DNA of 64,000 nucleotides from Actinomycetota bacterium. Its GTDB lineage: Bacteria; Actinomycetota; Acidimicrobiia; Spongiisociales; UBA5794. Below, in pieces: positions 3,198 to 53,673 of this stretch (position 1 is its first letter; the number at the start of each line of letters is the position of its first letter). The translations under genes were made by a program, and so were the position numbers. The notes under the pieces were generated by a model. The model was not told the origin of the DNA. It saw nothing but the letters and a program-made list of their open reading frames with translations, and did no database searches. The DNA lies in assembly GCA_030123765.1 (NCBI GenBank), contig JASJXX010000002.1:459-64458 (forward strand). The letters are read 5' to 3'.

Positions 3198-6445
<3,248 letters not shown>

Positions 6446-7330
6446 CGACTGGCGGGTACCACGTGCCGATCTGGCTTCGAACTTTGATGTCTGCGCTCTC
6501 GACAGCATCATTGAGCCATCTTCCCCAGGGGCCGTCAAGGAGCGTGTCAGGGATCCACTTCAGTGGATCAGCCGCGAGCTCCTCGAGCGACTCGGGCACG
6601 TCACGTGACTCAACGAAGATCACATGCCACCCGAACTGCGTCTCGATAGGCCCTGTGAACTCTCCAACAGGAACGGTAGAGATGGCCGCGGCGAACGGTC
6701 CCACGAACGAGCTAGGCGATATGGGGCACGGGAGCGCTCCACCCGGTGAAGTAGTGTCGAGGGAGACCGCATCCGCGAGAACCGCAAGGTCTTCTCCTGC
6801 GTTGAGCCGACCGAGCACCTCCTCCGCCTCGACCTGTGTAGCAACAAGGATGTGGCTGACGCAGATCTGAAGGAGGAAGGGCTGGTCGTCCTGCCAGATC
6901 TTCTGGAGAACATCGTCTCGCAACGCGAGAGCCTTGCGCACCTCGGATCTCAGCAGAAGCTGTGTGATGAGGACATCGATAGCACTCTCGGTGAAGGCAG
7001 GGTCAGCCTTCATAGAGTCAATCAAGTTCCGTCCCGAGAGCGGCGCCTGTTCTTCGAACGCCTCCCTCGCTTGCGGCGTGTCAAGACCGGTCAACCCGAA
7101 CTCTGTCTCTGCGGCGGCGAGCATCGCCTCGGTGAAGATGAGCCTCGACAGGTCGGATCTGAATTCCTCGGAGGACACGGAGCTTTTTGTGACGTCACGA
7201 GGCCGGAGACTCAGCACATACGCGTCGGTGATCTCGGAGCCGTTCACGGTGGCTGCAACGTCGGCAGAGCTGCAACCTGAGGCAAGGACGGCCGACGCTG
7301 TTAGAGCGAGCACGATTCGTCGTGTTCTCA

Positions 7331-10826: not shown

Positions 10827-11966
10827 ATGCAAGTCCCCTCCAGCATTCTCTATGGCGGCCGTCGAGGTACCCCGCCTGCGCTCATCGCCGCAACGGCGGC
10901 CGTGACTCTACTCTTCGTCGCGACCCCCTTCCTGATCACTCCCCTCTCTCAGCGATACGGGATCTCGGAGGGCTTCGCAGGCTCGATCTCCGTGGCACAA
11001 GTCGGGGCCTTCGCCGTTGCAAATTTCCTTTTCCCGCGACTACTCCGCCCATCCGGGAAGCTGCTGCGTCTCGCGGCAGTCGCCCTCGTCGCGCTGAACG
11101 TTCTCAGCGTTCTTGCAGGCGAGTACGCCCTCCTCCTTCTCCTTCGCATGTTGGCAGGAGCGGCCGCTGGAACGATGACGTGGCTGACGTGGTCCAACGC
11201 GATGCGGCGGAGACGCGCAATGTCTTCGATCGCTGCAACCGGTCCGATGACGGCGTTGTTCGCGACCCCTCTCATAGCGGTCGTCGCTGGCTGGGGGGGA
11301 GATCAGGCCGTGTATGCGTTCCTCGCCATCGCTGCCCTCCCTGCGGCTGTGTTGTGGGCGCCTGTCGGGGGTCGCAGACGCACGAGGAGAGTCATCTCCG
11401 GGTCACGGTCAAACCGGATCCTCCTCGCTTCGCTATTTTGCTTGACCTTCTTCGGCTCTGCGATGTTCATCAACCTGACGATCGTCGCGAGGGAGATTCA
11501 TGGACTGTCGCCCTTCGCGGCTTCGATCGCGTTCAGCTTCAATGCCGCAGGAGCCCTCCTCGGTGCTCGCCTCTCGACGCGTCACCGCCGTCCCGGGTGG
11601 TTCCTGGCGTCGATCGGACCCGCCGCGCTGTGCACCGCCATCGGACCGGCATGGCTGTTCTACGTGGGCATGACGTGGTGGGGCTTCGCGTTCTGGATGG
11701 GTATTCCCGGAGTGCTCCAGATGCTCGTCGACCGCTCGCTTGAACCGAGCGAGCGCGCCGGCGACGGACAGGGTGTCCTCGCCCTGGGTCGAGCAGCAGG
11801 CCCAGCCCTCGGCGGAGCCCTCGTCGACGGCGGTGCTCTCATCGCCCTCGCCATCATGTCGGCGATGGGATCAGTAGTGTCGGGCCTGACGGTCGTCGGC
11901 GTCAAAGAGGGCCGCGACCGCCTCCCACCCACCGACCGACGCACAATCGACCAGCAGGACGAGTAG
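10827..11966 (+). CDS. MFS transporter
   Basis: It has about 12 predicted hydrophobic helices with MFS-like loops. The start is uncertain; the track ORF begins at TTG 10737 and ATG 10827 was chosen. Confidence 0.65.
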   Translation: MQVPSSILYGGRRGTPPALIAATAAVTLLFVATPFLITPLSQRYGISEGFAGSISVAQVGAFAVANFLFPRLLRPSGKLLRLAAVALVALNVLSVLAGEYALLLLLRMLAGAAAGTMTWLTWSNAMRRRRAMSSIAATGPMTALFATPLIAVVAGWGGDQAVYAFLAIAALPAAVLWAPVGGRRRTRRVISGSRSNRILLASLFCLTFFGSAMFINLTIVAREIHGLSPFAASIAFSFNAAGALLGARLSTRHRRPGWFLASIGPAALCTAIGPAWLFYVGMTWWGFAFWMGIPGVLQMLVDRSLEPSERAGDGQGVLALGRAAGPALGGALVDGGALIALAIMSAMGSVVSGLTVVGVKEGRDRLPPTDRRTIDQQDE

Positions 11967-14590: not shown

Positions 14591-16075
14591 TCACGGCTCG
14601 ATCCAATTGAGCGACCGGTCGATCGCTCTCGACCAACCGGCCAGAAGACGGCTTCTGACCGCATCCTCCATGGCGGGCTGGTATCGGGTTGCTTCGCTCC
14701 AGTGACGCGTGACCTCATCTATGTCGCTCCACAGGCCCCCGGCGAGCCCAGCGCCGAAGGCCGCTCCGAGCGCAGTGGTCTCGGTGACCGACGGCACAAC
14801 TACGTCGATGCCGAGCACATCGGCCTGAAATTGCATGAGCAGCGCATTCGCGACCATACCCCCATCGACCCTGAGCTCGGACAGCGCACGGCCCGTGTCG
14901 GTGACCATTGCATCGAGCACGTCCTTCGTCTGGAACGCCGTTGCTTCTAGCACCGCCCGCGCGATGTGCCCCTTGTTCGAGTAGTGGGTGAGCCCGACGA
15001 GGACGCCTCGCGCGTCGTCTCGCCAGTGTGGGGCGAACAGGCCCGAGAACGCGGGAACGAAGTAAACGTCTCCGTTGTCAGGAACGGTCGAAGCAAGAAC
15101 CTCGATCTCTTCGGCGCTCGAGATGAGCCCGATGTTGTCCCGCAGCCACTGTACTGCGGATCCAGCGACCGCTACCGAGCCCTCCAGCGCGTATCGAGGG
15201 GACTCTCCTGCGATCTGATAGGCGACGGTCGTGAGCAGACCGGATGACGAAGAGACGATCTCCGTACCGGTGTTCGATACCAGGAATGCCCCCGTCCCAT
15301 AGGTGACTTTCGTATCACCGACGCTGAAAGCGGCCTGGCCAACCAGAGCGGCGTGCTGATCACCGAGAATCGTCATGAGCCTTGTGCCTTCCAGGACTCC
15401 CGAACATGCTCCGATATCCCCGATGGAGGGCACTATCTCGGGGAGTAGAGCCATCGGGACGCCGACCGCGTCACAGAGATCCTCGTCCCAGGCGAGGGTT
15501 GCAAGATCCATCAGCATCGTCCTGCTGGCATTCGTGACGTCCGTCACATGCCTACCAGTCAAGTGCCACGCAAGCCACGAATCGATCGTGCCGAACGCGA
15601 GATCACCATTGATCGCGCGCCGGGCCAGATCGGGGCTCTGATCAAGTATCGAGCGGATCTTGGGACCAGCAAAGTACGTCGCAGGGGGCAGACCTGTCTT
15701 CTGTCTGAAGGCTTCAGAGCCGTAACTCGCAGCAAGCGACTTCACAAGGTCCGCGGTGCGGGTGTCCTGCCACACGATCGCGTTCGTTACAGCCTCCCCC
15801 GTCAGACGATCCCAGACGACGGTCGTTTCGCGCTGGTTCGCAATGCCCACGCCGAGAAGGTCCGACGCGCGCAGACCGGCGAGATCAAGCGCGTCCTGGA
15901 TGACCGCACGCGTGTTCGCGAGGATCTCTTCGGGACGATGCTCGACCCGCCCCGGGCCGGGCAGTACCTGAGCATGCTCCATCCGGGAGACAGACACGAA
16001 GGCACCTTCAGCGTCGACGATCACGAAACGCGTGCTCGTAGTCCCCTGGTCGATCGCTCCCACGAATGCATCCAC
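14591..16075 (-). CDS. glpK: Glycerol kinase
   Basis: It has GAIDQGTTSTRF, GDQHAAL and FGGY-family kinase sequence over its full length (494 aa). Confidence 0.95.
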   Translation of the reverse strand: MDAFVGAIDQGTTSTRFVIVDAEGAFVSVSRMEHAQVLPGPGRVEHRPEEILANTRAVIQDALDLAGLRASDLLGVGIANQRETTVVWDRLTGEAVTNAIVWQDTRTADLVKSLAASYGSEAFRQKTGLPPATYFAGPKIRSILDQSPDLARRAINGDLAFGTIDSWLAWHLTGRHVTDVTNASRTMLMDLATLAWDEDLCDAVGVPMALLPEIVPSIGDIGACSGVLEGTRLMTILGDQHAALVGQAAFSVGDTKVTYGTGAFLVSNTGTEIVSSSSGLLTTVAYQIAGESPRYALEGSVAVAGSAVQWLRDNIGLISSAEEIEVLASTVPDNGDVYFVPAFSGLFAPHWRDDARGVLVGLTHYSNKGHIARAVLEATAFQTKDVLDAMVTDTGRALSELRVDGGMVANALLMQFQADVLGIDVVVPSVTETTALGAAFGAGLAGGLWSDIDEVTRHWSEATRYQPAMEDAVRSRLLAGWSRAIDRSLNWIEP

Positions 16076-16088
16076 TGCCAGGCTCCGG

Positions 16089-16646
16089 CTAGTCGTTCAA
16101 TTCCCCGGCGAATTGGCGAGCATCCTCGCCACCGGCGATGATGAATCGTTGAATCACCTCGGCTGCACGGTACACCGATACGTCAGCGTCCGGCCGCTGA
16201 GAGCGGGTGAACTTCCCGAGAACATAGGCGGCAGGATCCATTCTCCCCGGGGGACGCCCGACTCCGATCTTGAGCCGCCAGAAGTCGCGGGACTTCAGAG
16301 ATCCAGCGATAGAACGGACACCGTTGTTCCCACCGTGGCCACCGGACCACTGCACCTTCAGCCTTCCAAAGGGCACATCGATGTCATCGTGCACGATGAG
16401 TACCTCAGACAGTTCGACGCCGTAGTAGCGCACGAGGGGTTGGACCACCTGGCCAGATTCGTTCATGTAAGTCGTCGGCAACGCAAGCACGGCTCGGTGG
16501 CCTTCTGTGTTCACATCCGTGATCTCAGCGCGCATCCCTTGCGGGGCACGCTTGAGCCCCGCTCGCGCGTCCTGCAGATACCGGCTCACGGCCTCGCCAC
16601 CTATGTTGTGGCGAGTCCCTACGTATTCACGTCCCGGATTCCGCAA
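16089..16646 (-). CDS. pth: Peptidyl-tRNA hydrolase
   Basis: It has GNPGREYVGTRHNIG and the conserved position after rplY. Confidence 0.93.
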   Translation of the reverse strand: MRNPGREYVGTRHNIGGEAVSRYLQDARAGLKRAPQGMRAEITDVNTEGHRAVLALPTTYMNESGQVVQPLVRYYGVELSEVLIVHDDIDVPFGRLKVQWSGGHGGNNGVRSIAGSLKSRDFWRLKIGVGRPPGRMDPAAYVLGKFTRSQRPDADVSVYRAAEVIQRFIIAGGEDARQFAGELND

Positions 16647-16678
16647 CCCGACGACAAGGCGATTGCCCGACGGGGTGA

Positions 16679-17338
16679 TCAGCCCTGATCCTCTTCGGTG
16701 CCTTCGGACGAGACCTCTTCTTCTTCTTCGCCCTCCTCGCCCTCCTCGCCCTCAAGAAGTGACGACACCGCTGCAACCTCCGCGGCGGGCAGGCTCACCG
16801 TGATGAGCGGATAGTCGCCATCATGGAGATAGGTGACGCCTTCGATCTCGATGAGGTCGCTGACAGTGAGCGTTGCGTGCAGCGCCATCCCCGAAATGTC
16901 CACCTCGATCGATGAAGGGATCGCGTTCGGGAGGGCGGAGATCGTCACGCTGGGCTCAAGCATCTGGACAATCCCGCCATCTTCGGTCACACCGATCGGG
17001 ATTCCGACGAAATCAAGTTGCACCTCAGCTTCGATCTCAGTGTCCAACGACACCTGGATGAAATCGAGATGATCGATCTCGCCGCGTGCCGGATGACGCT
17101 GAACCTCGCGAGCAACGGTGAGCACGGTGTCTCCGTCAACGTCAAGCTCAATGATCGCGTTGAGGCCGGCTTCAGTGTTCAGAACGGCGCTCAGGTCATG
17201 CTTGGACACGTGGACCGCGACCGCGTCGATGTCTACTCCGTAGACGACGCCAGGCACGCGTCCCTCACGGCGGAGCCGTCGTGAGGGACGACTTCCCGCG
17301 GTCACGCGCTTCGCTGCGCGCAGAATCTCCTGCTGCAT
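16679..17338 (-). CDS. rplY: 50S ribosomal protein L25 / Ctc-type
   Basis: It has the N-terminal RREGRVPGVVYG and a two-domain Ctc form with an acidic tail EGEEGEEGEEEEE. Confidence 0.9.
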   Translation of the reverse strand: MQQEILRAAKRVTAGSRPSRRLRREGRVPGVVYGVDIDAVAVHVSKHDLSAVLNTEAGLNAIIELDVDGDTVLTVAREVQRHPARGEIDHLDFIQVSLDTEIEAEVQLDFVGIPIGVTEDGGIVQMLEPSVTISALPNAIPSSIEVDISGMALHATLTVSDLIEIEGVTYLHDGDYPLITVSLPAAEVAAVSSLLEGEEGEEGEEEEEVSSEGTEEDQG

Positions 17339-17448
17339 GTGTGGTCTCCAGGCAAATCGGGTGGGGGTTCATCTGTGAGTTTACGCGGATCGCGACAGAA
17401 GCGCTATAGAGCTGGCTGCAACAATCCCTCACCCCGCGTTCTCACGTC

Positions 17449-19143
17449 TCACTGTTCCAGGGTCCGGGACCTTCGATATGGGAGAATCTCGATGATCTCG
17501 CCAGCAACGATCCGATCCTGCACACCCTGCCAGAAGTCGATGTCGAACAAGTCAGAGTGGTAAACGTCAAACACTTCTCTCAACTCTCCCGTCAGTCCGA
17601 GGAAGCGGGGCAGTTCCTCGGGGAAGACATCGTTGGGACCAACACCGAAGGGGGGTGTGGCACTGAGTTCGTCGAGAGGATCATCTAATTGCGGAAAGCG
17701 CCTGAACTTGCATTCGGTGATCTCGCACAGTTCGTCATAGTCGTAGAACACGATCCGCCCCCTGGATGTGACACCGAAGTTCTTGAGAAGCATGTCACCC
17801 GGGAAGATATTCGTCGCGGCGAGATTCTTGATCGCCGTTCCGTAGTCGATGATCGCCCGGGCAGCGTCGTCACTACCGGCCTCTCTCAGAAAGATGTCGA
17901 GCGGTATCACTCGCCGCTCGACATACACGACCTTGAAGTTCACATCGCCGTTGTGAATCTCTACTGAGCGTGCAGCCTCGGAGAGAAGCTCGTTGAGTAG
18001 TACCTCGTCAAACCGGTCGCGCGGAAGCCTCAGATCAACGAATCGCTGCGCTTCCACGAGCCTACCCGCACGGTCATGGCGCGCCACGATGCGGTACTTG
18101 CCCGCGACCGCAGCGGGCGTGAAGTTCTTCTGAGGCGGGAAGTGGTCACGGATCACCTTGAAGACGACGTCGTACCCCCCGAGCGTGAACACAATCATGA
18201 CGAGGCCGGGAACGCCGTCGGCATACACCAGCTTGTCGGTTGATGTCTCGAGGTAGCGGGCGAGATCCCTGTACCGCTCCGTTTTGGCCTGCTTGCGAAA
18301 ACCGATCGAGGCATAGAGCTCCGCCGGTTTTCTCTTCGGGAGCAGATCGGAGAGGAACGCTACGAGATGACTCGGAATGTCCACGGAGACGAGGAACGCC
18401 GAGCGGGTATATGAGAACAGGATCGCCACATCCTCCTCTCCGACGAGCACCGCGCTGAGCTGCAGCCCGGATCGCCGATGCCGAATCGCGAGGGCGAAAG
18501 GCGTCTGTGTCGCGCCATGGAACATCCTGCCGATGAGATATGCCCCCTTCCCCCGGTAGAACAGTCGATCGACAACCTCGACCCGGTCCGGACACCCGGG
18601 CATCAGATCGACAGCGGCATCAAGGTTCCTGTGGATGTCTGCCCACGATGCATGGAATCGGCACTCCCTCAGCAGGTCGGCCAGCAGCGAACGGACATCA
18701 GATGGGCGGTCGTACACACGCAGCAGCGGATGGGTGGGCAGGATCGTCGGCTTCGGCGGAACGCCGAGAAACTCGATCTGTGGGTCGATGCCCTCGGTGC
18801 TGAACAGCCTCCTTGCGACCGAGTTGAAGAACGTCTCCGCGATCTCGGTGTACGGATCCGACGCGTGCTGGATGCGAAACAGGGACCTCGCGTCAGACCA
18901 GGCTTCCCTGTCGCCTGTGTCGTAGCCGGCATCGACGAGCGATTCGATCGTCGCAGCGAGATTCGACCCGTACGCGTCGAATCGCTCGAGATCGTCTCTG
19001 CGAATCGAGGGCCAATCCCTGCTCTCGAACCGAGCGGCGGCTCGCCTCGTCGAGGACTGGAACCGACGCCTGTAGGACTGAAACCCGATCGCGATCAGTG
19101 CGGCAATCTGTTCAGGAGCGAGGCTCATACGTGCCCACCACAA
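17449..19143 (-). CDS. aceK: Isocitrate dehydrogenase kinase/phosphatase AceK
   Basis: It is near-colinear with E. coli AceK from memory. Matching blocks include GVPGLVMIVFTLGGYDVVFKVIRDHFPPQKN, HDRAGRLVEAQRF, NIFPGDMLLKNFGVTSRGRIVFYDYDEL and NDVFPEE. Confidence 0.9.
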   Translation of the reverse strand: MWWARMSLAPEQIAALIAIGFQSYRRRFQSSTRRAAARFESRDWPSIRRDDLERFDAYGSNLAATIESLVDAGYDTGDREAWSDARSLFRIQHASDPYTEIAETFFNSVARRLFSTEGIDPQIEFLGVPPKPTILPTHPLLRVYDRPSDVRSLLADLLRECRFHASWADIHRNLDAAVDLMPGCPDRVEVVDRLFYRGKGAYLIGRMFHGATQTPFALAIRHRRSGLQLSAVLVGEEDVAILFSYTRSAFLVSVDIPSHLVAFLSDLLPKRKPAELYASIGFRKQAKTERYRDLARYLETSTDKLVYADGVPGLVMIVFTLGGYDVVFKVIRDHFPPQKNFTPAAVAGKYRIVARHDRAGRLVEAQRFVDLRLPRDRFDEVLLNELLSEAARSVEIHNGDVNFKVVYVERRVIPLDIFLREAGSDDAARAIIDYGTAIKNLAATNIFPGDMLLKNFGVTSRGRIVFYDYDELCEITECKFRRFPQLDDPLDELSATPPFGVGPNDVFPEELPRFLGLTGELREVFDVYHSDLFDIDFWQGVQDRIVAGEIIEILPYRRSRTLEQ

Positions 19144-19150
19144 CCTGCGG

Positions 19151-20125
19151 TCAGATGTTCTCGCCCTTGAACAGCTCGCTCACGGACGAATCGCTGAAGA
19201 TTGCCTCGATTGTGCCTGCAACGATCGGTGCGACCGACAACACAGTCAGGTTTGGCAGCGAGAGGGCCTCAGGAGTGACAGGGAGCGTGTTTGTGATGAT
19301 GATCTCGCTGATCGGAGCGGCCGAGAGCCGCTCGATCGCCGGCGGTGAGAGAATGCCGTGCGTGGCAGCCACGATGACCGAGAGAGCTCCACGTTTGACG
19401 AGCAGTTCAGCGCTCGCTACCACGGTGCCCGCGGTGTCGATCATGTCATCGACGATCACGCAGTGCCTGCCTTCGACGTCGCCGACGACCCACTCGGCAT
19501 CGACATCGTTCCGCAGTTCGCCGCGACGCCTCTTGTACACGAACGCAACCTCAGCGTCGATGTGGCTGGCAAACCTCGTGGCACGTTTCACGCCGCCGGA
19601 ATCGGGAGATACAAAGGTGATCGGGCCATGGAGCCTGTGAGCGAAGTACTCCTCGAACAGGGGCATTGCGGTGAGCGAATCGAACGGCGCATCGATGAAG
19701 CCCTGGATCTGGCCCGTGTGCAGGTCAACAGATGCGATGCGGTTCGCTCCCGCCGCGATAAAGAGATCACCCATCATCTTTGCGGTGATCGGTTCGCGTG
19801 GTCGACCCTTCTTGTCCTGGCGTGCGTAGCCATAGCATGGGACAACGGCAGTAATCCGTTTCGCCGACGCACGTTTGAGCGCGTCGATCATGATCAACTG
19901 CTCCATGATGTGTTCATTGACTGGATCCGAGTGGCTCTGGATCACAAAACAGTCTGCGCCTCGCACGGACTCGGTGTAGCGGATGTATATCTCGCCGTTC
20001 GCGAACGTCGATCGCTCCACGCCACCAAGTTCGGTGTCGAGGAGCTTGGCTACCTCAGCCGCAAGATCCTCGTTTGCCGACCCCGAGAACACCATGAGCC
20101 TCTTGAGCCCCGGACGCATCATCAC
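19151..20125 (-). CDS. prs: Ribose-phosphate pyrophosphokinase
   Basis: It has the PRPP-binding loop VIVDDMIDTAGT and GGVKRA. It is 324 aa and lies downstream of glmU. Confidence 0.95.
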   Translation of the reverse strand: MMMRPGLKRLMVFSGSANEDLAAEVAKLLDTELGGVERSTFANGEIYIRYTESVRGADCFVIQSHSDPVNEHIMEQLIMIDALKRASAKRITAVVPCYGYARQDKKGRPREPITAKMMGDLFIAAGANRIASVDLHTGQIQGFIDAPFDSLTAMPLFEEYFAHRLHGPITFVSPDSGGVKRATRFASHIDAEVAFVYKRRRGELRNDVDAEWVVGDVEGRHCVIVDDMIDTAGTVVASAELLVKRGALSVIVAATHGILSPPAIERLSAAPISEIIITNTLPVTPEALSLPNLTVLSVAPIVAGTIEAIFSDSSVSELFKGENI

Positions 20126-21504
20126 TCCTCCGACTCCTTCTCCGCGCGTAGCCGCCGCCTCTCAGCGTAGCCAGGGATGTTGCGTTGTGAACTTCGCTCA
20201 ATGCCGAGGGAACCTTCGGGTACGTCATCCGTGATGACGGACCCCGCTCCCGTGTAGGCGTCATCCCCGATCATCACAGGGGCCACCAGCATCGTGTCTG
20301 AGCCGATCCGCACACGGTCTCCGATTGTCGTGCGATACTTCTTGTGACCGTCGTAATTGACGGTGACGGTGGCCGCCCCGATATTCGTATCCCTGCCGAT
20401 GGTGGCGTCACCGATGTAGCTGAGGTGGGGGATCTTGGATCCCTCGCCGATCTCAGAATTCTTGACTTCGACGTAGGCCCCAATCTTGGTTCCGCCGGCG
20501 AGAACGGTGCCGGGACGCAGATACGTGTACGGGCCGATCAAGGAGTTCTCGCCCACTACTGCACCGCGGAGTACGGCGTGGACAACTATGGCATCTGCAC
20601 CGATGACCGAGTCGTGTACCTGCACGCTCGGGCCGATGCACGCACCGACCGCGACGGTCGTATCGCCCGTCAGGTAAGTATCGGGGTAGATCTGACTTCG
20701 GGGGGCGACGTCGACTCCTGCGTCGATGTACACGCGTGATGGGTCGAGCATCCAGACACCCGACTCCATGAGCGTGGTGTTGATGCGGGTTCTGAGCACC
20801 GCTGCCACCTCTGCGAGCTGAGCCTGAGTGTTGACTCCGACCCCCTCCTCGGCATCGGTGAGGAACCCTGCCACCCGGTGACCCGCAGCAACAATGACGC
20901 TGACGGCATCGGTGAGGTAATACTCACCCTGGTCGTTCTCATTCGAGATCTGTTCAAGCGCCTCCGCGAGCAGCGCACCGTCAAAGACGTAGACGGAGGT
21001 GTTCACCTCGCTGATAGAACGCTGTTCATGCGACGCGTCGCGCTCCTCGACGATCGCTGCAACATCTCCGTCCAACCGGATGATCCGTCCGTACCCGTGC
21101 GGGTCATCGAGTTTGACCGTGAGGACTGTCGCCGCGGCAGCGCTCTGATTGTGGCGTTCCACGAGCCCACGGAGCGTCTCTGCCTTGATGAGAGGCATAT
21201 CACCGGGAACGACGACCACGATGTCGTGGACCCTGGTGAAACCGCCGAGACCGACCATGGCGGCATGTCCTGTTCCGTTCTGCGGTTCCTGGACCGCGGT
21301 GATGATCCCCTCCGCGAGCCCGGAAGTCACCTCGTCGGCTTGAACTCCAACGACGACGGAGGTCTCGTCTGGGTCAAGCATGCCTACGGCTTCGAGAACC
21401 CAGTCGAGCAGTGTTCGACCTGCTGCGGTGTGGAGCACTTTGGCCAACCCGGTCTCCATCCGGGTACCTCTGCCTGCTGCGAGAATGATCACGCCGACAC
21501 TCAT
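20122..21504 (-). CDS. glmU: Bifunctional GlcNAc-1-P uridyltransferase / GlcN-1-P acetyltransferase
   Basis: It has ILAAGRGTRM at the N-terminus and a left-handed beta-helix hexapeptide C-terminal half (NYDGHKKYRTTIGD). Confidence 0.95.
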   Translation of the reverse strand: MSVGVIILAAGRGTRMETGLAKVLHTAAGRTLLDWVLEAVGMLDPDETSVVVGVQADEVTSGLAEGIITAVQEPQNGTGHAAMVGLGGFTRVHDIVVVVPGDMPLIKAETLRGLVERHNQSAAAATVLTVKLDDPHGYGRIIRLDGDVAAIVEERDASHEQRSISEVNTSVYVFDGALLAEALEQISNENDQGEYYLTDAVSVIVAAGHRVAGFLTDAEEGVGVNTQAQLAEVAAVLRTRINTTLMESGVWMLDPSRVYIDAGVDVAPRSQIYPDTYLTGDTTVAVGACIGPSVQVHDSVIGADAIVVHAVLRGAVVGENSLIGPYTYLRPGTVLAGGTKIGAYVEVKNSEIGEGSKIPHLSYIGDATIGRDTNIGAATVTVNYDGHKKYRTTIGDRVRIGSDTMLVAPVMIGDDAYTGAGSVITDDVPEGSLGIERSSQRNIPGYAERRRLRAEKESEE

Positions 21505-21529
21505 CTGATCACAACCTTTGGTCGTTTCG

Positions 21530-21601
21530 CTGGGGGGACAGGACTCGAACCCGTACTAGGTGGACCAAAACCACCTGTGCTGCCAGTTACACCACCCCCC
21601 A
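21530..21601 (-). tRNA. tRNA-Gln (anticodon UUG)
   Basis: A hand-folded cloverleaf has a 7-bp acceptor stem UGGGGGG/CCCCCCA, a 4-bp D stem, an anticodon stem GGUGG/CCACC with loop UUUUGGU, and a T arm ACGGG-UUCGAGU-CCUGU. There is no encoded CCA. It lies between glmU and ispE as in other actinobacteria. Confidence 0.9.
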
Positions 21602-21657
21602 CTGTGGTGGCGCGCACACCAAGTCTAGAGGAGGGTCGAGCGTGTATCCCTTCGCTG

Positions 21658-22506
21658 TCACCCATCAACCCGCTCCCATCCGCGCCCGACGAGCGCAACG
21701 GCTTCGGCAGCTCTCAGTGGTACATCGATGCTGCGAACAGCGCCCTCTGCTTCTTCGAGGGTACCAAAGAAGCCGAAGAGCGCGGAGCCCGATCCCGTCA
21801 TGGCGACGGCCGTCCCCCACCTCGCCGCGATCTCCGAGCGCCAGTCGCCGATACGGGGGTCAAGCGAGAGTGCGGCAGGCAATAGGTCGTTTCGGATCGG
21901 AAGGCCGCCTCTAAGGATCGGAGGCAGGTACCGGTCCTCGATCACCTCACCCGTCGGCCCGTCAAGGCGATCCCACTCGGCGAACACGGCAGGCGTCGAG
22001 AGAGCAAACGGTGGAACGATGATTCCGAGTGCGAAGCCGGCCAACGGATCGAGTTCGCTGAGTCGCTCACCCCTCCCCTCAACGAGCTGGGTCCCTCCTA
22101 TTAGAGAGAAAGGAACGTCGGCGCCGAGCGACTCCGCTAGCTCTGCCTGCGCCTCGTCGTCAAGTCCAAACCTCTCCGCCATCAGACCGAGGGCAGCAGC
22201 GGCGTCGGCGCTTCCGCCTCCGAGGCCCGCCCCCGCCGGGATCCGCTTGTGCATCTCCAGAGCGACAGGCGCAGTGACACGCGCGGAACGCCTCACCGCC
22301 TGGACCGCCTTCCACGCCAGGTTGGACTCGTCCTCTGGCGCCTCACCGTTCGTGACGATGATCGCGTCGTGCGACGCCGGCATCACCGCGACATCGTCGT
22401 GAAGCGAGACAGATTGAAAGATCCCACGGAGCGGGTGAAACCCGTCTGCCGAACGCGGGTAGATCGCGAGAGCAAGATTGACCTTGGCGTACGCCACCGC
22501 ATTCAT
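21658..22506 (-). CDS. ispE: 4-diphosphocytidyl-2-C-methyl-D-erythritol kinase
   Basis: It has AYAKVNLAL and the GHMP kinase motif KRIPAGAGLGGGSADAAA. Confidence 0.9.
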   Translation of the reverse strand: MNAVAYAKVNLALAIYPRSADGFHPLRGIFQSVSLHDDVAVMPASHDAIIVTNGEAPEDESNLAWKAVQAVRRSARVTAPVALEMHKRIPAGAGLGGGSADAAAALGLMAERFGLDDEAQAELAESLGADVPFSLIGGTQLVEGRGERLSELDPLAGFALGIIVPPFALSTPAVFAEWDRLDGPTGEVIEDRYLPPILRGGLPIRNDLLPAALSLDPRIGDWRSEIAARWGTAVAMTGSGSALFGFFGTLEEAEGAVRSIDVPLRAAEAVALVGRGWERVDG

Positions 22507-23333
22507 GCCCCAAGCTCCTCTGCCTCGGCGATTCGGACGAACTCAGAGGGTGCGAGCTGTTCCGGCCTTGCTGTCGGGTCAATGCGCGCCCTCACGAGGA
22601 TCGACGTTGGATCGACAAGGATGGCGGCCAGGGACCGTCTGAGCATCTTACGGCGCTGGCCAAACGCCACACCTGCGAGCTTCATCGCCCTCGCAGCGGC
22701 AGCGGGCGCTTCCTTACGGTCGAGAACGATCACCGCTGACGCGACTCTCGGCTGCGGCTCGAATACCTGAGGTGGCACCGCAAACGCGAATCTTCCCTCA
22801 GCGTGAAGCCCGACGATGACAGACGGGAGCCCGTACGTCTTGGATCCTTCATCGGCCAGCAGCCTATCGGCAACTTCTCTCTGAACCATGACCACGATGC
22901 GCGTGACCTGTGACACGTGTCGGAGCGTGTCAAGCACGATCCCTGTGCCCACGTTGTACGGCAAGTTCGCGACCATGGTCCACACCCCGGCGCCCAGGGC
23001 CGCGTGGAGATCAATGCGAGCAGCATCCTCGAATCGGAGTTCGACATTTTCGAGGTGCCCTACCGTCTCTTCCAGGATAGGTGCGAGGGACCGATCGATC
23101 TCGTAGGCAACAACGCTTCGAGCTCGGCCCGCCAGAGCCGAAGTGATCGTCCCGGTACCTGCCCCTATCTCAACGACCTGTGAAGAGTTGTCGAGGTCAG
23201 CCTCCGCGACGAGACGTCTCACAATGTTCGGATCAGCGAGGAAGTTCTGACCGTACGAGTAGGTCGGCTGCTGGCCGTGCACTCTCAACAATCGGCGGAT
23301 CTCGCTGCGGGCCTGTGTCCCGTCGTCAACCAC
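22503..23333 (-). CDS. rsmA: 16S rRNA (adenine1518/1519-N6)-dimethyltransferase
   Basis: It has GQNFLADPNIVRRL and the SAM motif VEIGAGTGTIT. The GTG 23333 start was chosen to avoid a long overlap with tatD; the track ORF starts at 23423. Confidence 0.88.
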   Translation of the reverse strand: MVDDGTQARSEIRRLLRVHGQQPTYSYGQNFLADPNIVRRLVAEADLDNSSQVVEIGAGTGTITSALAGRARSVVAYEIDRSLAPILEETVGHLENVELRFEDAARIDLHAALGAGVWTMVANLPYNVGTGIVLDTLRHVSQVTRIVVMVQREVADRLLADEGSKTYGLPSVIVGLHAEGRFAFAVPPQVFEPQPRVASAVIVLDRKEAPAAAARAMKLAGVAFGQRRKMLRRSLAAILVDPTSILVRARIDPTARPEQLAPSEFVRIAEAEELGA

Positions 23334-24111
23334 GAGGGAGACCGAACACTCGTGCCGCCGTCTCTGAGGTGAGCCGAGCAACCTCGTCGATCTCCACACC
23401 CCATACCTGCCCGAGTGCGGCACCGATGAGCGACACGTTCGCCGGCTCGTTGGCTCGCCCTCTCAGCGGCTCCGGGGTCAGGTACGGACTGTCGGTTTCG
23501 AGCATCGTGCGATCTCTGGGTGCGTGGCGTGCAGCAAGACGCAGTGTCTCGCCCGTCGGGTAGGTCAACGGGCCGGCAAAAGAGAACGTCACGTCGAGTT
23601 CCCTGAATCGTTTCGTCCACTTGGGCCCTCCTGTCCAACAGTGCAGCACCGCACGAGCTCCAAGGTCGGCTTCGGCGAGCATCTCGAAGACGTCTCGGAA
23701 CGCGTCCCTGCAGTGGACGATTACCGGCTTGTCGAGATCCGCTGCGAGATCGAGCTGCTCCCTGAAAGCAAGGACCTGGTCTTCGCGCGAGGCAAGATTC
23801 CGGTACCAGTCCAGGCCGCACTCCCCGATCGCGTCCGCGTCAATCGCGAGTTCCGCGATCTCGTCCGCGGCCGCAGGCCAGTCCGCCGCGCTGTGCGGGT
23901 GCAGGCCCGCCGACCAGAGCACGCGATCCGGCAACCGATCGGCGAGCGCCCGTGATCGCCTCGACGATGCGACATCGACGCCGGGACAGAGCAACCAATC
24001 GACACCTGCATCACGAGCGCGGTCAAGCACTCTGTCAGGCTCGTCCTCCATGAGGAAGAGATGAGCGTGCGTGTCGACCCACGCGGGTGAGGCCGCGGCA
24101 GGCACCGTCAT
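23326..24111 (-). CDS. tatD: TatD family metal-dependent hydrolase
   Basis: It has WVDTHAHL, ECGLDWY, VIVHCRDA and LETDSPYL. The ATG 24111 start lies right after the metG stop. Confidence 0.9.
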   Translation of the reverse strand: MTVPAAASPAWVDTHAHLFLMEDEPDRVLDRARDAGVDWLLCPGVDVASSRRSRALADRLPDRVLWSAGLHPHSAADWPAAADEIAELAIDADAIGECGLDWYRNLASREDQVLAFREQLDLAADLDKPVIVHCRDAFRDVFEMLAEADLGARAVLHCWTGGPKWTKRFRELDVTFSFAGPLTYPTGETLRLAARHAPRDRTMLETDSPYLTPEPLRGRANEPANVSLIGAALGQVWGVEIDEVARLTSETAARVFGLPRG

Positions 24112-46291: not shown

Positions 46292-47752
46292 CTACGCCTC
46301 GTCGACTGATGCGTTAAAGGATTCGATCATCTCGTCGATCGGATCTACCAACGCCTGAATACCCGTCCAGTAGTCCGAGTCGTACCACTGGGACTGGATC
46401 TCCTCATACGTCTTACCCTGCTGTTCGACCCACGTGTAATACTTCAGGTTGTGGACTCGCTTACGCTCGTAGTAGTCGAGCTCCTGCACATGTTGGAGGC
46501 TCTGGCCCATGAGATGCTGGTGGTAGGCGGCCGCAGCATCATGCGCCGTGAACTCGCCCCGCTCGTCGTTGAGTTCCGCCAGACGCGACCCGTACATCTC
46601 CATCGAGTCCGTCCCGACCGTCATCACGACGTCGTTCCCTGTGAGCTCGTACCACTTCGCGAACTTGATGGCCATCAACATGTTCGCGACCCCGGAGATA
46701 CCAAGGAGCGGAAGCTTCTCGATGAACGCCGCAGATGCTCCCTGGGCAGCCAGGTAGGCAAGGCCTGCAGGCTCGTTAAAGAGACGGATCAGGCTGATCG
46801 ATGACTCGTCATCGATCCCCATCACCATGTCTGTGTTGCGCACGTTGTGGATCCACGGGATGTGCTTGTCCCCGATCCCTTCTATCCGGTGCTCACCAAA
46901 GCCGTTGTAAAGCATTGTCGGGCACTCGGTCGCTTCACCCGCAACGATCTTCGAGTTCGGATACTGCTGTTTGAGGTAGTCTCCCGACGCGATCGTTCCG
47001 GCCGAGCCCGTTGTCAGGGTCACGCCGGCGAACCGGTCGAGCGGGCCCATGACCTCCCTGAGGACCTCGAACATGGCCGGGCCTGTGACCGAGTAGTGCC
47101 AGAGATAATTTCCGAACTCGTCGAACTGGTTGAAGATCACGAGATCCTCGCCCGAGACCCGCAACTCGTTGCACTTGTCGAAAATCTCTTTGACGTTCGA
47201 CTCGGTTCCCGGCGTCCTGATGATCTCGCCTGCCACGCTCTCGAGCCAATGGAACCGTTCGGCACTCATCCCTTCAGGGAGGATCGCGATCGACTCGCAC
47301 CCGAGGAGATTCGAGTCGTAGGCGCCGCCCCGACAGTAGTTGCCGGTCGAGGGCCATACAGCCTTCTGCGTTGCGGGGTCGAACTGGCCGCTGACGAGCC
47401 TCGGGACGAGGCAGCCGAACGCCGCGCCGACCTTGTGGGCGCCGGTCGGAAACCACTTTCCCTCGAGCATGATGATGCGAGCGTCAACACCGCTGACCTC
47501 GGGGGGAACTTCGAAGTAGTTCACCCCACCAAACCCTCCGCCCGAGGGTGTCGGGTCGTTGTGCCAGGTGATGCGGTACAGGTTGACGGGGTCGAGATCC
47601 CACAGCCCGACGCTGCCGAGGCGCTGCTTCACCTCTTCAGGGACCAGGCTCGGGTCCCGCATCTGCTTGAACGTCGGGATCTTGAAATTCCGCGCCTTTG
47701 CCTGGATGACGGCGGAGCGGAGAACAGACTCGTTGACGGTGAGGTCGATCAT
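46292..47752 (-). CDS. Fold-type II PLP-dependent enzyme (cysteine synthase/CBS-like core with long N- and C-terminal extensions)
   Basis: The candidate PLP-lysine segment is FPTGAHKVGAAFG, followed by WPSTGNYCRGGAYDS...AILPEGMSAERF, which parallels the PxGSxKDR...SGNxG...MPExMSxER pattern. It is 486 aa and the last gene of the carbamate-kinase operon. Confidence 0.7.
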   Translation of the reverse strand: MIDLTVNESVLRSAVIQAKARNFKIPTFKQMRDPSLVPEEVKQRLGSVGLWDLDPVNLYRITWHNDPTPSGGGFGGVNYFEVPPEVSGVDARIIMLEGKWFPTGAHKVGAAFGCLVPRLVSGQFDPATQKAVWPSTGNYCRGGAYDSNLLGCESIAILPEGMSAERFHWLESVAGEIIRTPGTESNVKEIFDKCNELRVSGEDLVIFNQFDEFGNYLWHYSVTGPAMFEVLREVMGPLDRFAGVTLTTGSAGTIASGDYLKQQYPNSKIVAGEATECPTMLYNGFGEHRIEGIGDKHIPWIHNVRNTDMVMGIDDESSISLIRLFNEPAGLAYLAAQGASAAFIEKLPLLGISGVANMLMAIKFAKWYELTGNDVVMTVGTDSMEMYGSRLAELNDERGEFTAHDAAAAYHQHLMGQSLQHVQELDYYERKRVHNLKYYTWVEQQGKTYEEIQSQWYDSDYWTGIQALVDPIDEMIESFNASVDEA

Positions 47753-47777
47753 GACGGACGGTCCTTTCCGTTGCCTC

Positions 47778-49031
47778 TCAATTGCTCAGGGCTGCTTTGA
47801 GCGCCTCGAGGTTCGGGTCGATGTACATGGGCTCGGTCCCGACCGCGGCTACAGCGCTCATGACCGAGGCAACGTCCTTGAGGCCGCTCCCGGTCGCGAG
47901 CATCACGACTCGGTCTCCGGCTCCGATGAGACCACGGTCAAGAGCCGCGACGATACCGGCGTACGGCGCAGCTCCCGCCGGTTCAGCGAAGACGCCCGAT
48001 CCGCGCGCCAACGTCGGTATTGCGGCAAGAATTTCGTCGTCTGCGACACGGAGATACGCTCCCCCCGTCTCGGTGACGGCTGCCATCGCCTTGATACGGT
48101 CACGGGGCAGATCGGCACTGATCGAGTCGGCAACAGTCTCCGCAGAGATAGGGGGCTTGGTCAGCACGTCCTCACCGCTCTCGAAGGCTTGAACGAGATA
48201 GTCACTCCCTGCGGCCTGAATGCCGAAGATACGCGGCACGCGGTCGATCCATCCGAGGGCGAAGGCATCCTTCACGGCCTTGTGGACCCCGCCGATGATC
48301 GACCCGTCGCCGACGCTCACGAAGATGGCGTCGGGGGCCTCCCATCCGAGGTCTTCGAGGATCTCGAGACCGGCGGTTTTCTTCCCCTCCGTCATGAACG
48401 GGTTGTACCCGGTATTGCGGTTGTACCAGCCGTACTCGGCGACGGCCTCCATGCAGAGTTCGAATGCGTCGGTGTACGTGCCATTGACGAGAGCGACCGT
48501 AGACCCGTACGCGAGCAACTGGGCGATCTTCGCTTCCGGCGCGGAGGAGGGGACGAATATCACGCTGCGCAGCCCGACGCTCGCCGCGATTCCGGCGAGG
48601 GCTGCTGCGGCATTCCCCGTCGACGCGGTGGTGACGACCTCCGCCGCACGCGCCTGCGCCTTGACGACGGCCATCGCCGAGGCACGGTCCTTGAGCGACG
48701 CCGTCGGCTGACGCCCCTCGTCCTTTACCCAGAGGTTCGCTATCCCGAGCCTGGCCGCGAGTGGCTTCACGTCATAGAGCGGCGTCCCTCCGATGCTGAG
48801 CGGCGGGACCACCGTGTCGCTGGCGAGCGGCATGAGCGGGAGATATCGCCACATCGTGCGATCTCGATTCTCGGCGAGTACCTCGCGCGTGAAGGTTGCT
48901 CCGATGCGCTCATAGTCGTAACGGACATCGAGTATCCCCTCGTTGCCGTGATCCGTGCAGACGTAACCTGCAAAGTCTTCCGGGTACATCGTGCCACAGA
49001 TCACGCACGCGAGTCCGATGACGTTACTCAT
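47778..49031 (-). CDS. Threonine synthase-like PLP enzyme with N-terminal zinc-ribbon
   Basis: It has the N-terminal CVICGTMY...YVC, then GGTPLY, KDEGRQPTASLKDRAS (PLP Lys) and TASTGNAAAALA. It is 417 aa and has an ATGA overlap with carbamate kinase. Confidence 0.8.
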   Translation of the reverse strand: MSNVIGLACVICGTMYPEDFAGYVCTDHGNEGILDVRYDYERIGATFTREVLAENRDRTMWRYLPLMPLASDTVVPPLSIGGTPLYDVKPLAARLGIANLWVKDEGRQPTASLKDRASAMAVVKAQARAAEVVTTASTGNAAAALAGIAASVGLRSVIFVPSSAPEAKIAQLLAYGSTVALVNGTYTDAFELCMEAVAEYGWYNRNTGYNPFMTEGKKTAGLEILEDLGWEAPDAIFVSVGDGSIIGGVHKAVKDAFALGWIDRVPRIFGIQAAGSDYLVQAFESGEDVLTKPPISAETVADSISADLPRDRIKAMAAVTETGGAYLRVADDEILAAIPTLARGSGVFAEPAGAAPYAGIVAALDRGLIGAGDRVVMLATGSGLKDVASVMSAVAAVGTEPMYIDPNLEALKAALSN

Positions 49032-49969
49032 CGAACGATCCTGGTGCCGGTCTCGCCGGCCATGGCCCGCTCGAGGTTCTCAGGATTTGTGATCAGTGCT
49101 TCGCTGCCTCCAGCCTCGAGGAACTGGACGACGGCACGCATCTTGGGGGCCATCGAACCCTCGGCGAAGTGTCCGCCCTCCTCAAGGTACGCCTTCACCT
49201 CGTCGAGCGTGAACTCATCCATCCACCGCTGATCCGGTGTACCGAAGTTGAGCGCGACCTGCTCGACTGCGGTGCAGATGAGCAGGAGATCGGCTCCGAT
49301 CTCGCTCGCCAGGAGCGCCGACGCGAGATCCTTGTCGATCACCGCCGCGATCCCTTCCAAATCTCCCTCTTCGTTCACAACGACCGGGATACCGCCGCCG
49401 CCGACGGCGATGGTGACGATTCCGGCGTCAACGAGGACCCGGATCACATCAAGTTCGACGATCCGCATCGGATGGGGGGAGGCCACGACACGACGCCAGC
49501 CGCGCCCGGCATCCTCAACGACATCCCAACCCTCCTCGTCGCGCCGGCGCACTGCCTCGTCCTCGTCCATGAAGGATCCGATTGGCTTCGTCGGCTTGTC
49601 GAACGCCGGATCGGCACGATCGACCTCGACCTGTGTGACAACCGTGACGACGCTCTTGTCGATGCCGCGCTGGCGAAAGTCGTTGACCAGGTTCTGCTGG
49701 AGCATGTACCCGATCGCGCCCTGTGTGTCAGCCCCGCAGTAATCGAGCGGGACCTCGTGAAGCTCGTTACTCGCAAGCTCGGACCGTCGCAGGATGAAAC
49801 CGATCTGGGGTCCATTGCCGTGAGAGATCACGACGTCCCACCCCTGCTCAACGAACGTTGCGATACGGTCGTCGGTCTCGGCCGCGGCTGCGTACTGGTC
49901 CTGGACCGACTGGTGCCTGGCGTCCGGGATCAGCGAATTACCGCCAATGGCGATAACGAGTCTGGGCAT
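49028..49969 (-). CDS. arcC: Carbamate kinase
   Basis: It has MPRLVIAIGGNSL and VISHGNGPQIG and is 313 aa, matching the amino-acid-kinase fold of ArcC/YqeA type. Its start overlaps the upstream stop (TAATG). Confidence 0.9.
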   Translation of the reverse strand: MPRLVIAIGGNSLIPDARHQSVQDQYAAAAETDDRIATFVEQGWDVVISHGNGPQIGFILRRSELASNELHEVPLDYCGADTQGAIGYMLQQNLVNDFRQRGIDKSVVTVVTQVEVDRADPAFDKPTKPIGSFMDEDEAVRRRDEEGWDVVEDAGRGWRRVVASPHPMRIVELDVIRVLVDAGIVTIAVGGGGIPVVVNEEGDLEGIAAVIDKDLASALLASEIGADLLLICTAVEQVALNFGTPDQRWMDEFTLDEVKAYLEEGGHFAEGSMAPKMRAVVQFLEAGGSEALITNPENLERAMAGETGTRIVR

Positions 49970-50928
49970 TACTCCCAGGCTCCGAGCACGGACGACAGCA
50001 GAGCCATGCGCATCACGACACCGTTGTAGGCCTCCTGCCAGTACCGGGCATGCTTGAGCTGGTCAACCTCCGGGAGCAGCTCGTCCATTCGCGGGAGCGA
50101 GTGGAGGATGATCGAGTCGCCCTTGGCCCGCTTCATGACCTCAGGAGTGATCTTGTAGTTGGCCGGGGTGAGGCCGTAGTCGTCGGGCCTCTCCTGAACG
50201 GAGAGGGTGTAATCGGGCTGGATGACCGGCTCCATGTAGATCACGTCGGCTTCGGCGATGACATCGTCGATGTGATCGACGACACGGTAATTCGTGCCCT
50301 TCTCGTCGAGCTCGGCAAGGAACTCCGGGAGAGGGGACATCTCCTCGGGAGCGAGGATGACCATCTCGACGTCGAATTGTGACAGGGCGTATCCGAGGGA
50401 GTGCATCGTCCGCATCCGGTGGTCACCGATGGCGACGAACGTGAGCCCGTCGATGGTGCCCTTCTCCTTCAACACGGTGTAGAGATCCGTGAGGATCTGG
50501 GTCGGATGCTCACCCCAACCGTCACCGGCGTTGATGACCGGGATTGAGCACCACTTGGCGGCCTCGTGGGGAGCACCCTGCTCAAAGTGGCGCATGACCA
50601 GGACATCGCCGTAGTACTCCAACATGTGGACCGTGTCTTTGATCGACTCCTGGTAGAAGTCGCCGGCACGCGTCATCTTGGCGTCCGAGAAGCCCGTCAC
50701 GTGACCGCCGAGGCGGTGCATCGCGGCCTCGTGGGCGAGCCGCGTCCGTGTGGAGGGCTGATAGAACGCGGTCACAAGCGTCTTGTGGGCAAGGAGATCC
50801 GTGTTTCGGCGTTCCCGGGCGATCGGCTCAAGGCGGTCGGCAATCTCGAAGAGGTGGAAGAACTCGCTCCGCTCGAAGTCCTTGAGGGAGAGAATGTCGC
50901 GTCCGGTGAAGCTACGCATGCCTGGCAT
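49969..50928 (-). CDS. ATCase-fold carbamoyltransferase with non-canonical acceptor site (not a plain PyrB)
   Basis: The carbamoyl-phosphate motifs STRTRLAHE, VMRH, GEHPTQ and the ATCase-type LHSLPRMDEL are present. The E. coli PyrB segment YMTRVQKER (Arg229, Gln231) reads YMEPVIQPD here. Confidence 0.8.
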   Translation of the reverse strand: MPGMRSFTGRDILSLKDFERSEFFHLFEIADRLEPIARERRNTDLLAHKTLVTAFYQPSTRTRLAHEAAMHRLGGHVTGFSDAKMTRAGDFYQESIKDTVHMLEYYGDVLVMRHFEQGAPHEAAKWCSIPVINAGDGWGEHPTQILTDLYTVLKEKGTIDGLTFVAIGDHRMRTMHSLGYALSQFDVEMVILAPEEMSPLPEFLAELDEKGTNYRVVDHIDDVIAEADVIYMEPVIQPDYTLSVQERPDDYGLTPANYKITPEVMKRAKGDSIILHSLPRMDELLPEVDQLKHARYWQEAYNGVVMRMALLSSVLGAWE

Positions 50929-50956
50929 CCTTTGAGTCGGCTTGGTACATTGGCCA

Positions 50957-50966
50957 TACTATAGTA
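50957..50966. promoter_or_regulatory. Perfect 10-bp palindrome TACTATAGTA in an AT-rich divergent promoter region (candidate GntR/HutC operator)
   Basis: It lies between the divergent starts at 50928 (-) and 50982 (+). It is flanked by GTACA repeats (50946-50950 and 50964-50968) and overlaps -10-like hexamers TATAGT, TACAAT and TATTAT. Confidence 0.45.
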
Positions 50967-50981
50967 CAATATTATGACCCT

Positions 50982-51734: not shown

Positions 51735-51775
51735 ACCATCCTCAGCCAGAGTCACGAGCCACAAAGGAGTAGTTG

Positions 51776-52750: not shown

Positions 52751-52801
52751 GCGCTGTCGTGGATCCGGATCGTTGCGTCTCACCACGAGAGGACGCACGA
52801 G

Positions 52802-53380
<579 letters not shown>

Positions 53381-53433
53381 GGAGATGTGACCATGAGAAG
53401 AGTCGTCGGATATGTCGACGGTACCGACTCGGC

Positions 53434-53673
53434 GTGCGCATCGGTCACGTTCACAAGGTTTACGCCCCCCACGACAGCGTGCCGCCGGGAGGTGTCACCT
53501 ACCAGGACATCTTCCACGTCTGCCGCACCTTCGACACCCCTCTCCTCATTGAAGTCCACAACGGGCTCCGCGACAAGGCGGAGACGCTCGTCGCCGACAT
53601 CCCGGATGTCGTAGAATTCGTGGATCCAGCGGCGATGCTCTCCAAGGTGCGGGACAATCTCGAGAACAAGTAA
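53434..53673 (+). CDS. Hypothetical small protein (79 aa)
   Basis: It has a GTG start, high third-position GC and a protein-like sequence (VTYQDIFHVCRTFDTPLLIEVHNGLRDKAETLVADIPDVVEFVDPAAM). I recognise no family. The overlapping minus-strand ORF looks like a mirror artefact. Confidence 0.4.
   Translation: MRIGHVHKVYAPHDSVPPGGVTYQDIFHVCRTFDTPLLIEVHNGLRDKAETLVADIPDVVEFVDPAAMLSKVRDNLENK

Follow-up and report, generated by a model that had tools for sequence, protein, structure and literature searches.

The isocitrate dehydrogenase kinase/phosphatase AceK and its substrate, isocitrate dehydrogenase (ICDH), are the founding example of bacterial protein phosphorylation. AceK phosphorylates the active-site serine of the homodimeric NADP-dependent ICDH, which is thereby switched off, and dephosphorylates it to switch the enzyme on. 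This switch sets the split of isocitrate between the oxidative tricarboxylic acid (TCA) cycle and its diversion, classically into the glyoxylate shunt. An AceK homologue is described here from a stretch of 64,000 nucleotides (the window) of an Actinomycetota bacterium of the class Acidimicrobiia (assembly GCA_030123765.1, contig JASJXX010000002.1, positions 459 to 64,458). Its gene, aceK, keeps intact catalytic residues and lies in a conserved position directly downstream of prs, within the housekeeping cluster glmU-prs-(x)-rplY-pth.

The closest described system is the aceBAK operon of E. coli (AceK structures PDB 3EPS, 3LC6 and 3LCB). The window protein shares with E. coli AceK the two-domain architecture, the catalytic Lys/Asp/Asn set, the length of the substrate-recognition loop and the motif EIAE[ST]FFNSV. 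The setting differs: the window aceK comes last in glmU-prs-aceK, none of aceA, aceB and icd is present in the 64 kb, and the host phylum is Gram-positive. AceKs of Verrucomicrobiota, Chloroflexota, Gemmatimonadota, Dormibacterota and Planctomycetota, together with that of one Actinomycetota metagenome-assembled genome (MAG; locus L021), are likewise full length and outside the Proteobacteria, and are 41-47% identical to the window protein. These keep the linkage to isocitrate lyase and malate synthase, whereas the window protein belongs to a separate, fully supported branch without it.

The genomic backbone, on the other hand, is that of other Actinobacteria. In Mycobacterium tuberculosis the full order is glmU-prsA-lpqT-rplY-pth (Rv1018c-Rv1014c). 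There lpqT (Rv1016c) adjoins prsA (Rv1017c), with which it is co-transcribed by reverse-transcription PCR (bioRxiv 10.1101/2023.07.16.549196). The housekeeping genes are the same and a variable guest gene fills the prs-rplY gap; in M. tuberculosis the guest is this lipoprotein gene, as a first-pass annotation of the window made from the sequence alone had stated, whereas here aceK takes that place, in most relatives with yjbQ after it. Mycobacteria lack AceK and regulate their ICDH allosterically by glyoxylate (PMC4999502). The locus is not a new kind of system; it shows a new member of a known family in a genomic context that is unusual, though conserved.

Identity and catalytic residues of the window AceK

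The gene, its two domains and the loop segment are placed in the window as follows.

17449..19128, minus strand: aceK, isocitrate dehydrogenase kinase/phosphatase homologue, 559 aa (Pfam, PDB alignment, identical database protein)
18241..19104, minus strand: AceK regulatory domain PF20423 (Pfam AceK_regulatory, E = 5.1e-74, profile 1-301 of 302; residues 14-301 of the 564-aa open reading frame)
17473..18237, minus strand: AceK kinase/phosphatase domain PF06315 (Pfam AceK_kinase, E = 1.5e-98, profile 1-255 of 256)
17635..17715, minus strand: segment aligned to the E. coli substrate-recognition loop (E. coli residues 484-510; alignment, per-region identity)

The open reading frame (ORF) is an AceK family member, with a similarity far above chance. 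Both Pfam domain scores are well over the gathering scores. Residues 8-555 of the 559-aa product align to residues 9-567 of E. coli AceK (3LC6/3EPS, E = 4e-108), and the PDB matches 3LC6, 3EPS and 4P69 all have E values of about 1e-107 to 1e-108 over the same residues. Full-length identity to the E. coli protein is 36-37% (37% by tblastn). The full-length match to solved structures settles the AceK fold predicted for the window protein. The assignment to AceK in the first-pass annotation therefore stands, and the long identical blocks that it noted are real in the PDB alignment; one block common to both proteins reads NIFPGDML.KNFGVT..GR.VFYDYDE.

The gene model of the first-pass annotation is corrected in its strand and in its start codon. 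On the minus strand the ORF 17449..19143 gives 564 aa when read from a TTG at 19143. An ATG at 19128, five codons inside the TTG, gives a product of 559 aa and is preceded by a GGTGG Shine-Dalgarno-like motif. Database protein P0001 is identical to the 559-aa product and starts at this ATG, and relatives match from its first residue. The ATG at 19128 is the probable start codon.

The E. coli residues K336, D457, K461, N462, D475 and D477 correspond in the PDB alignment to K324, D445, K449, N450, D463 and D465 of the window protein, identical at all six positions. The first-pass annotation had made its proposal depend on the catalytic Asp residues, and these (D445, D463 and D465) are intact. 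Conservation was followed across 81 AceKs aligned by MAFFT: the window protein, those of 79 loci and that of E. coli. In E. coli numbering, K336, K461, N462 and D475 are invariant in 81/81, while D457 and D477 are Asp in 79/81, the window protein among them. In the regulatory domain all 81 sequences have the same residue at the position of E. coli N104, and the motif EIAE[ST]FFNSV is conserved.

Conservation varies along the protein. Identity of the window AceK to that of E. coli is 48% in the kinase core, 41% in the substrate loop and 29% in the regulatory domain. Among the AceKs encoded next to prs (the prs-linked clade, described below) the corresponding values are 68%, 62% and 51%, with 58% for the whole protein. 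The loop segment has the same length as in E. coli, with no insertion or deletion in any member of this clade. Nothing in the sequence suggests decay, and the frame reads as full length and uninterrupted. This intact frame, the retained catalytic residues and a kinase core at 68% identity, where the housekeeping neighbours reach only 50-87%, together point to purifying selection on aceK.

Conserved position downstream of prs in Acidimicrobiia

On the minus strand the window carries, in order, ksgA, ispE, tRNA-Gln, glmU, prs, aceK, rplY, pth, a glpK-like kinase gene, a CDP-alcohol phosphatidyltransferase gene and an epimerase gene. The features around aceK are listed below.

21529..21601, minus strand: tRNA-Gln (anticodon TTG), between ispE and glmU (ARAGORN; Rfam tRNA, 55 bits)
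20122..21504, minus strand: glmU, bifunctional UDP-GlcNAc pyrophosphorylase/acetyltransferase (Pfam NTP_transf_3, NTP_transferase, Hexapep)
19151..20125, minus strand: prs, ribose-phosphate pyrophosphokinase, directly upstream of aceK (Pfam Pribosyltran_N, 1.2e-48; Pribosyl_synth)
19129..19150, minus strand: prs-aceK spacer, 22 nt, holding GGTGG (sequence; promoter and terminator scan)
17339..17448, minus strand: aceK-rplY spacer, 110 nt (sequence; scan; folding)
16679..17338, minus strand: rplY, ribosomal protein L25 in its TL5/Ctc form (Pfam Ribosomal_L25p, Ribosomal_TL5_C)
16089..16646, minus strand: pth, peptidyl-tRNA hydrolase (Pfam Pept_tRNA_hydro, 3.9e-50)

The four genes of the actinobacterial cluster glmU-prs-(x)-rplY-pth are co-oriented and the variable gene lies in the prs-rplY gap. 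The glmU stop and the prs start overlap by 4 nt. From the prs stop there are 7 nt to the TTG and 22 nt to the ATG of aceK, and 110 nt separate aceK from rplY; the one-strand order and the distances of 7 and 110 nt had been read correctly in the first pass.

Synteny was followed by tblastn of the ten neighbouring proteins of the window against the AceK loci, as far as the contigs reach. The order ksgA-ispE-glmU-prs-aceK-rplY-pth-glpK is kept in L001-L004, L006-L008, L010-L016 and L018-L020. It also appears in independent database gene calls with Pfam labels, in L083 (a 447-kb contig), L084 and L085. In about 20 Acidimicrobiia species genomes the prs-aceK-rplY slot holds an AceK, at 76% down to 47% identity to that of the window. 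The neighbours diverge in step, as two relatives illustrate, and prs is 67-87% identical across the syntenic relatives.

Identity of window proteins to L001: prs 87%, aceK 74%, rplY 74%, pth 72%, glmU 69%
Identity of window proteins to L018: prs 67%, aceK 47%, rplY 54%, pth 52%, glmU 53%

Neighbour joining places the prs-linked AceKs in a single clade (200/200 bootstraps), apart from the gammaproteobacterial branch with E. coli (194/200). A second group of Acidimicrobiia AceKs (L034, L064, L067, L072 and L080) is found away from prs, is 43-46% identical to the window protein and branches near the aceBAK-type L021. Since this group sits elsewhere both on the chromosome and in the tree, the class holds at least two AceK lineages.

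The composition of aceK is that of its host. Its guanine-cytosine (GC) content is 0.599 and its GC at third codon positions (GC3) 0.74, compared to 0.597 and 0.74 for prs and a GC of 0.628 for the window. Its codon usage correlates with the pooled neighbours at 0.89, within the neighbours' own range of 0.62-0.91. The host-average GC, from which the first-pass annotation concluded that the gene is not an obviously recent transfer, is thus borne out by GC3 and codon usage. Gene order, divergence in step with the neighbours, a single clade and host-like composition indicate an old, single insertion downstream of prs that was inherited vertically. An ancestor within the Acidimicrobiia would have gained aceK once, just downstream of prs, and passed it on by descent ever since.

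The slot after aceK is variable. A yjbQ gene (YjbQ/UPF0047, ~135 aa) directly follows aceK on the same strand in L001-L004, L006-L008, L010, L013, L014, L016, L084 and L085, often at a distance of 0-10 nt, and the usual unit in relatives is prs-aceK-yjbQ. In most relatives yjbQ separates aceK from the conserved stretch upstream of rplY. A search for yjbQ throughout the window did not find it. Other genes in this slot are CutA1 (L083) and a GNAT acetyltransferase (L015, L020).

AceK has a far broader range than the literature suggests. A word-index protein search with the window AceK gave 7639 significant homologues, of which the best 120 are 53-100% identical. Where named, nearly all of these 120 carry the label 'bifunctional isocitrate dehydrogenase kinase/phosphatase' and come from MAGs of Acidimicrobiia or Actinomycetia; automated pipelines already label these proteins AceK in public MAGs. 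A second scan, in which each GTDB species was represented by one genome, yielded 470 AceK relatives. Among the best 80 of these, 25 are Acidimicrobiia or otherwise labelled Actinomycetota, and the remainder come from Chloroflexota, Verrucomicrobiota, Gemmatimonadota, Planctomycetota, Acidobacteriota, Dormibacterota, Armatimonadota, Gammaproteobacteria and others. An exhaustive HMMER search of 1.84 billion cluster representatives gave 409 clusters (50% identity) at E ≤ 1e-30. It also showed complete AceK-like segments of ~550 aa (29-34% identity) inside very large proteins (P0244, 3862 aa; P0257, 6037 aa; P0265, 4574 aa; P0251, 2461 aa; P0253, 2864 aa; P0151, 1228 aa). These may be fusions, eukaryotic gene models or mis-assemblies.

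A restriction of AceK to Gram-negative bacteria is still the published view (Murima et al.; PMC4999502). Among the papers searched, none joins AceK with Acidimicrobiia, Microthrix, Ilumatobacter or Actinomycetota, and the paper on the reversed oxidative TCA (roTCA) cycle in Acidimicrobiia is silent on aceK and the glyoxylate shunt. The first-pass annotation likewise held AceK to be essentially proteobacterial and unexpected in this lineage, a claim that it would give up if homologues proved common in the class. AceK is conserved through the Acidimicrobiia clade and widespread in other phyla, so the claim of rarity fails on the annotation's own terms. Reviews and primary papers still confine AceK to Gram-negative bacteria and deny Actinobacteria the system (PMC4999502), a taxonomic picture that the present data correct. 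A whole branch of the Acidimicrobiia, a class common in marine sediments, has long carried an intact AceK, whose gene keeps one and the same place in a housekeeping operon, apart from the shunt genes. The locus offers a natural test of whether AceK can control ICDH outside the aceBAK setting.

Proposed transcription, substrate and function

The arrangement of the locus suggests how aceK is transcribed. The prs-aceK gap is 0-35 nt across the whole prs-linked clade. Promoter and terminator scans of the minus strand gave no site at the prs-aceK or the aceK-rplY junction. The gene is probably the last of a glmU-prs-aceK transcript, of which the tRNA-Gln marks the upstream boundary. This tRNA is the only one in the window and the only match in an Rfam scan of 15800-23800. 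As the last gene of this unit, aceK would probably be expressed with growth-related precursor genes, and probably not be induced with aceBA as in E. coli.

Downstream, folding of the 110-nt aceK-rplY spacer gave z = 0.35, with no significant RNA structure and no terminator-like hairpin. Since the spacer has neither significant structure nor an Rfam match, read-through from aceK into rplY is possible. On the other hand, the last ~70 nt upstream of rplY align in seven relatives, with an invariant TA[A/C]ACT and a conserved GGAG.

17378..17383, minus strand: TAAACT, a −10-like hexamer of the actinobacterial TAnnnT pattern, ~39 nt before the rplY ATG (alignment of relatives)

This hexamer is a putative promoter −10 element, and rplY-pth is probably driven by its own promoter. 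Co-transcription of aceK with rplY-pth is doubtful because of this conserved element. The first-pass annotation had proposed co-transcription with both cell-wall precursor and translation genes: the glmU-prs part is plausible, given the 22-nt gap, the lack of a terminator in the scans and the joint transcript of lpqT and prsA at the equivalent slot in M. tuberculosis, whereas the rplY-pth part is doubtful.

By analogy with the chemistry and regulation of the E. coli enzyme, the reading that we favour, with some reserve, is a canonical AceK that acts on ICDH and is expressed as the distal gene of glmU-prs-aceK. The sequence shows that every feature which this reading calls for has been kept by purifying selection; the substrate, the co-transcription with prs and the metabolic role we infer. 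The classes of ICDH recognition have been described (PMC3521221), and some planktonic Acidimicrobiales carry isocitrate lyase and malate synthase (PMC4337565). Sporadic neighbours of aceK in relatives encode enzymes of central metabolism.

L006, 8095-10818, minus strand: phosphoenolpyruvate (PEP) carboxylase, beside aceK (E = 4.6e-210)
L012, 7796-10543, plus strand: pyruvate-phosphate dikinase, beside aceK
L016, 9772-13335, plus strand: pyruvate:ferredoxin oxidoreductase, beside aceK
L034 (second Acidimicrobiia lineage), 10921-11817, minus strand: pyruvate-phosphate dikinase, near aceK (three tblastn pieces, which may be a frameshift or a local-alignment artefact)

All belong to the PEP/pyruvate/acetyl-CoA node, so a role of AceK in central carbon flux fits.

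Several points weigh against an ICDH-directed AceK in this operon. The neighbours of the PEP/pyruvate node are confined to three or four relatives and show no conservation. By tblastn, icd, aceA and aceB are absent within 6-10 kb of aceK in every syntenic relative. Those actinobacterial ICDHs that have been characterised, from Mycobacterium and Corynebacterium, are either monomeric or of type II and have no AceK recognition segment (PMC4999502), and the canonical mechanism would fail if the Acidimicrobiia have only such enzymes. The transcript data are also ambiguous. Several marine-sediment metagenomes contain DNA of the window, as do four runs with a metatranscriptomic label; contigs of all four of these runs cover aceK, and one of 967 nt (X9, 18631-19597) spans the prs/aceK junction. 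However, these libraries are labelled 'WGA', their depth is flat across genes and they may contain DNA, so that the junction-crossing contig supports a joint transcript only weakly.

The shunt genes are missing from the window as well. No icd, aceA or aceB was found among its genes, annotated gene by gene and probed by tblastn with E. coli Icd, AceA and AceB, and the Icd probe matched nothing in the window or in 85 AceK loci. With the same AceA and AceB probes, about 20 loci of Verrucomicrobiota, Chloroflexota, Gemmatimonadota, Dormibacterota and Planctomycetota, as well as the Actinomycetota MAG L021, did show aceB-aceA next to aceK. Neither the window nor any prs-linked relative has aceB and aceA next to aceK in the same orientation. 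Because the probes detected these genes elsewhere and none here, the prs-linked clade either has lost the classical operon linkage or never had it.

A bolder proposal, which we regard as unlikely but worth stating, is that in this clade the AceK switch was detached from the genes of the glyoxylate shunt and tied instead to the growth-linked glmU-prs operon. Phosphorylation of ICDH, or of a new target, would then tune the supply of 2-oxoglutarate and NADPH, or the direction of the TCA cycle, together with nucleotide and cell-wall precursor synthesis. This might apply to organisms without isocitrate lyase that rely on pyruvate:ferredoxin oxidoreductase (PFOR), pyruvate-phosphate dikinase (PPDK) and PEP carboxylase (Ppc). 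If true, AceK-type phospho-regulation would be known for the first time from a Gram-positive phylum, and its physiological logic would differ from that in E. coli.

A more distant alternative, to which we give little credence, is that the catalytic machinery was retargeted to a protein other than ICDH, e.g. a partner linked to Prs, phosphoribosyl pyrophosphate (PRPP) or nucleotides, or that the protein acts mainly as an AMP-sensing ATPase/phosphatase. Retargeting would account for a close link of aceK to prs rather than to aceBA: the prs-aceK junction keeps within 0-35 nt while AceK diverges by more than 50%, and linkage to aceBA or icd is found nowhere in the clade. The regulatory domain is also the most diverged part relative to E. 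coli (29% vs 48% in the kinase core), and the characterised actinobacterial enzymes lack AceK-interacting elements (PMC4999502). The substrate-recognition loop, on the other hand, is unchanged in length and similar in conservation to the whole protein, and the neighbours in relatives indicate central carbon rather than nucleotide metabolism. E. coli AceK has an extreme substrate specificity, which counts against retargeting, as does the existence of unlinked aceK genes with ICDH still as the target, e.g. in Pseudomonas aeruginosa. The intimate recognition described between AceK and its substrate (PMC4999502) argues in the same direction.

That aceK is a decaying or non-functional relic carried in the operon is suggested by the lack of its classical partners aceBA nearby, and is highly improbable: the frame runs uninterrupted over its full length, no catalytic residue is lost and the kinase core is conserved across the clade at a level comparable to that of the housekeeping neighbours, so that pseudogene status is effectively excluded. 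A recent horizontal acquisition from Proteobacteria, or a chimera of assembly or binning, draws its sole support from the expected Gram-negative restriction in the literature and is effectively refuted by composition and codon usage indistinguishable from those of prs, by about 20 independent assemblies, made in different studies, in which one contig carries both the insertion and the actinobacterial housekeeping cluster, by a monophyletic clade apart from the gammaproteobacterial branch, by AceK divergence that follows that of the neighbours, and by recovery of the locus at 95-100% word share in at least seven metagenome runs. The preferred reading remains that of a vertically inherited AceK that would act on ICDH, with rplY-pth downstream probably transcribed on its own.

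Other features of the window

Several further features were observed in the window. At 4916-6538 (minus strand) a tetrapyrrole-methylase-like domain is fused to a MazG nucleotide pyrophosphohydrolase; the gene adjoins eno and mfd and is kept in the relative L083.

The region 46292-64000 holds a cluster with two PALP pyridoxal-phosphate-dependent enzymes, an amino-acid (carbamate)-kinase-like gene, an amidohydrolase and MobA. It also contains two aspartate/ornithine carbamoyltransferase paralogues flanking a GntR/UTRA regulator, and two sets of molybdoenzyme subunits of the xanthine-dehydrogenase/CO-dehydrogenase type. The cluster presumably resembles the xdh-ygeW-ygeX-hyuA-yqeA purine/oxamate catabolic region of E. 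coli.

Within this region, the sole match of a 140-aa ORF at 52958-53380 (plus strand) is to the N-terminal dimerisation domain of Glu/Leu/Phe/Val dehydrogenases (E = 6e-35), and the C-terminal end of the ORF resembles the extreme C-terminus of GdhA. It looks like what is left of a glutamate dehydrogenase gene after a large internal deletion. An ORF of 381 aa at 53715-54860 (plus strand), missed by GC3-based gene calling, carries the GxGxxG motif typical of D-isomer-specific 2-hydroxyacid dehydrogenases of the glyoxylate/hydroxypyruvate reductase type.

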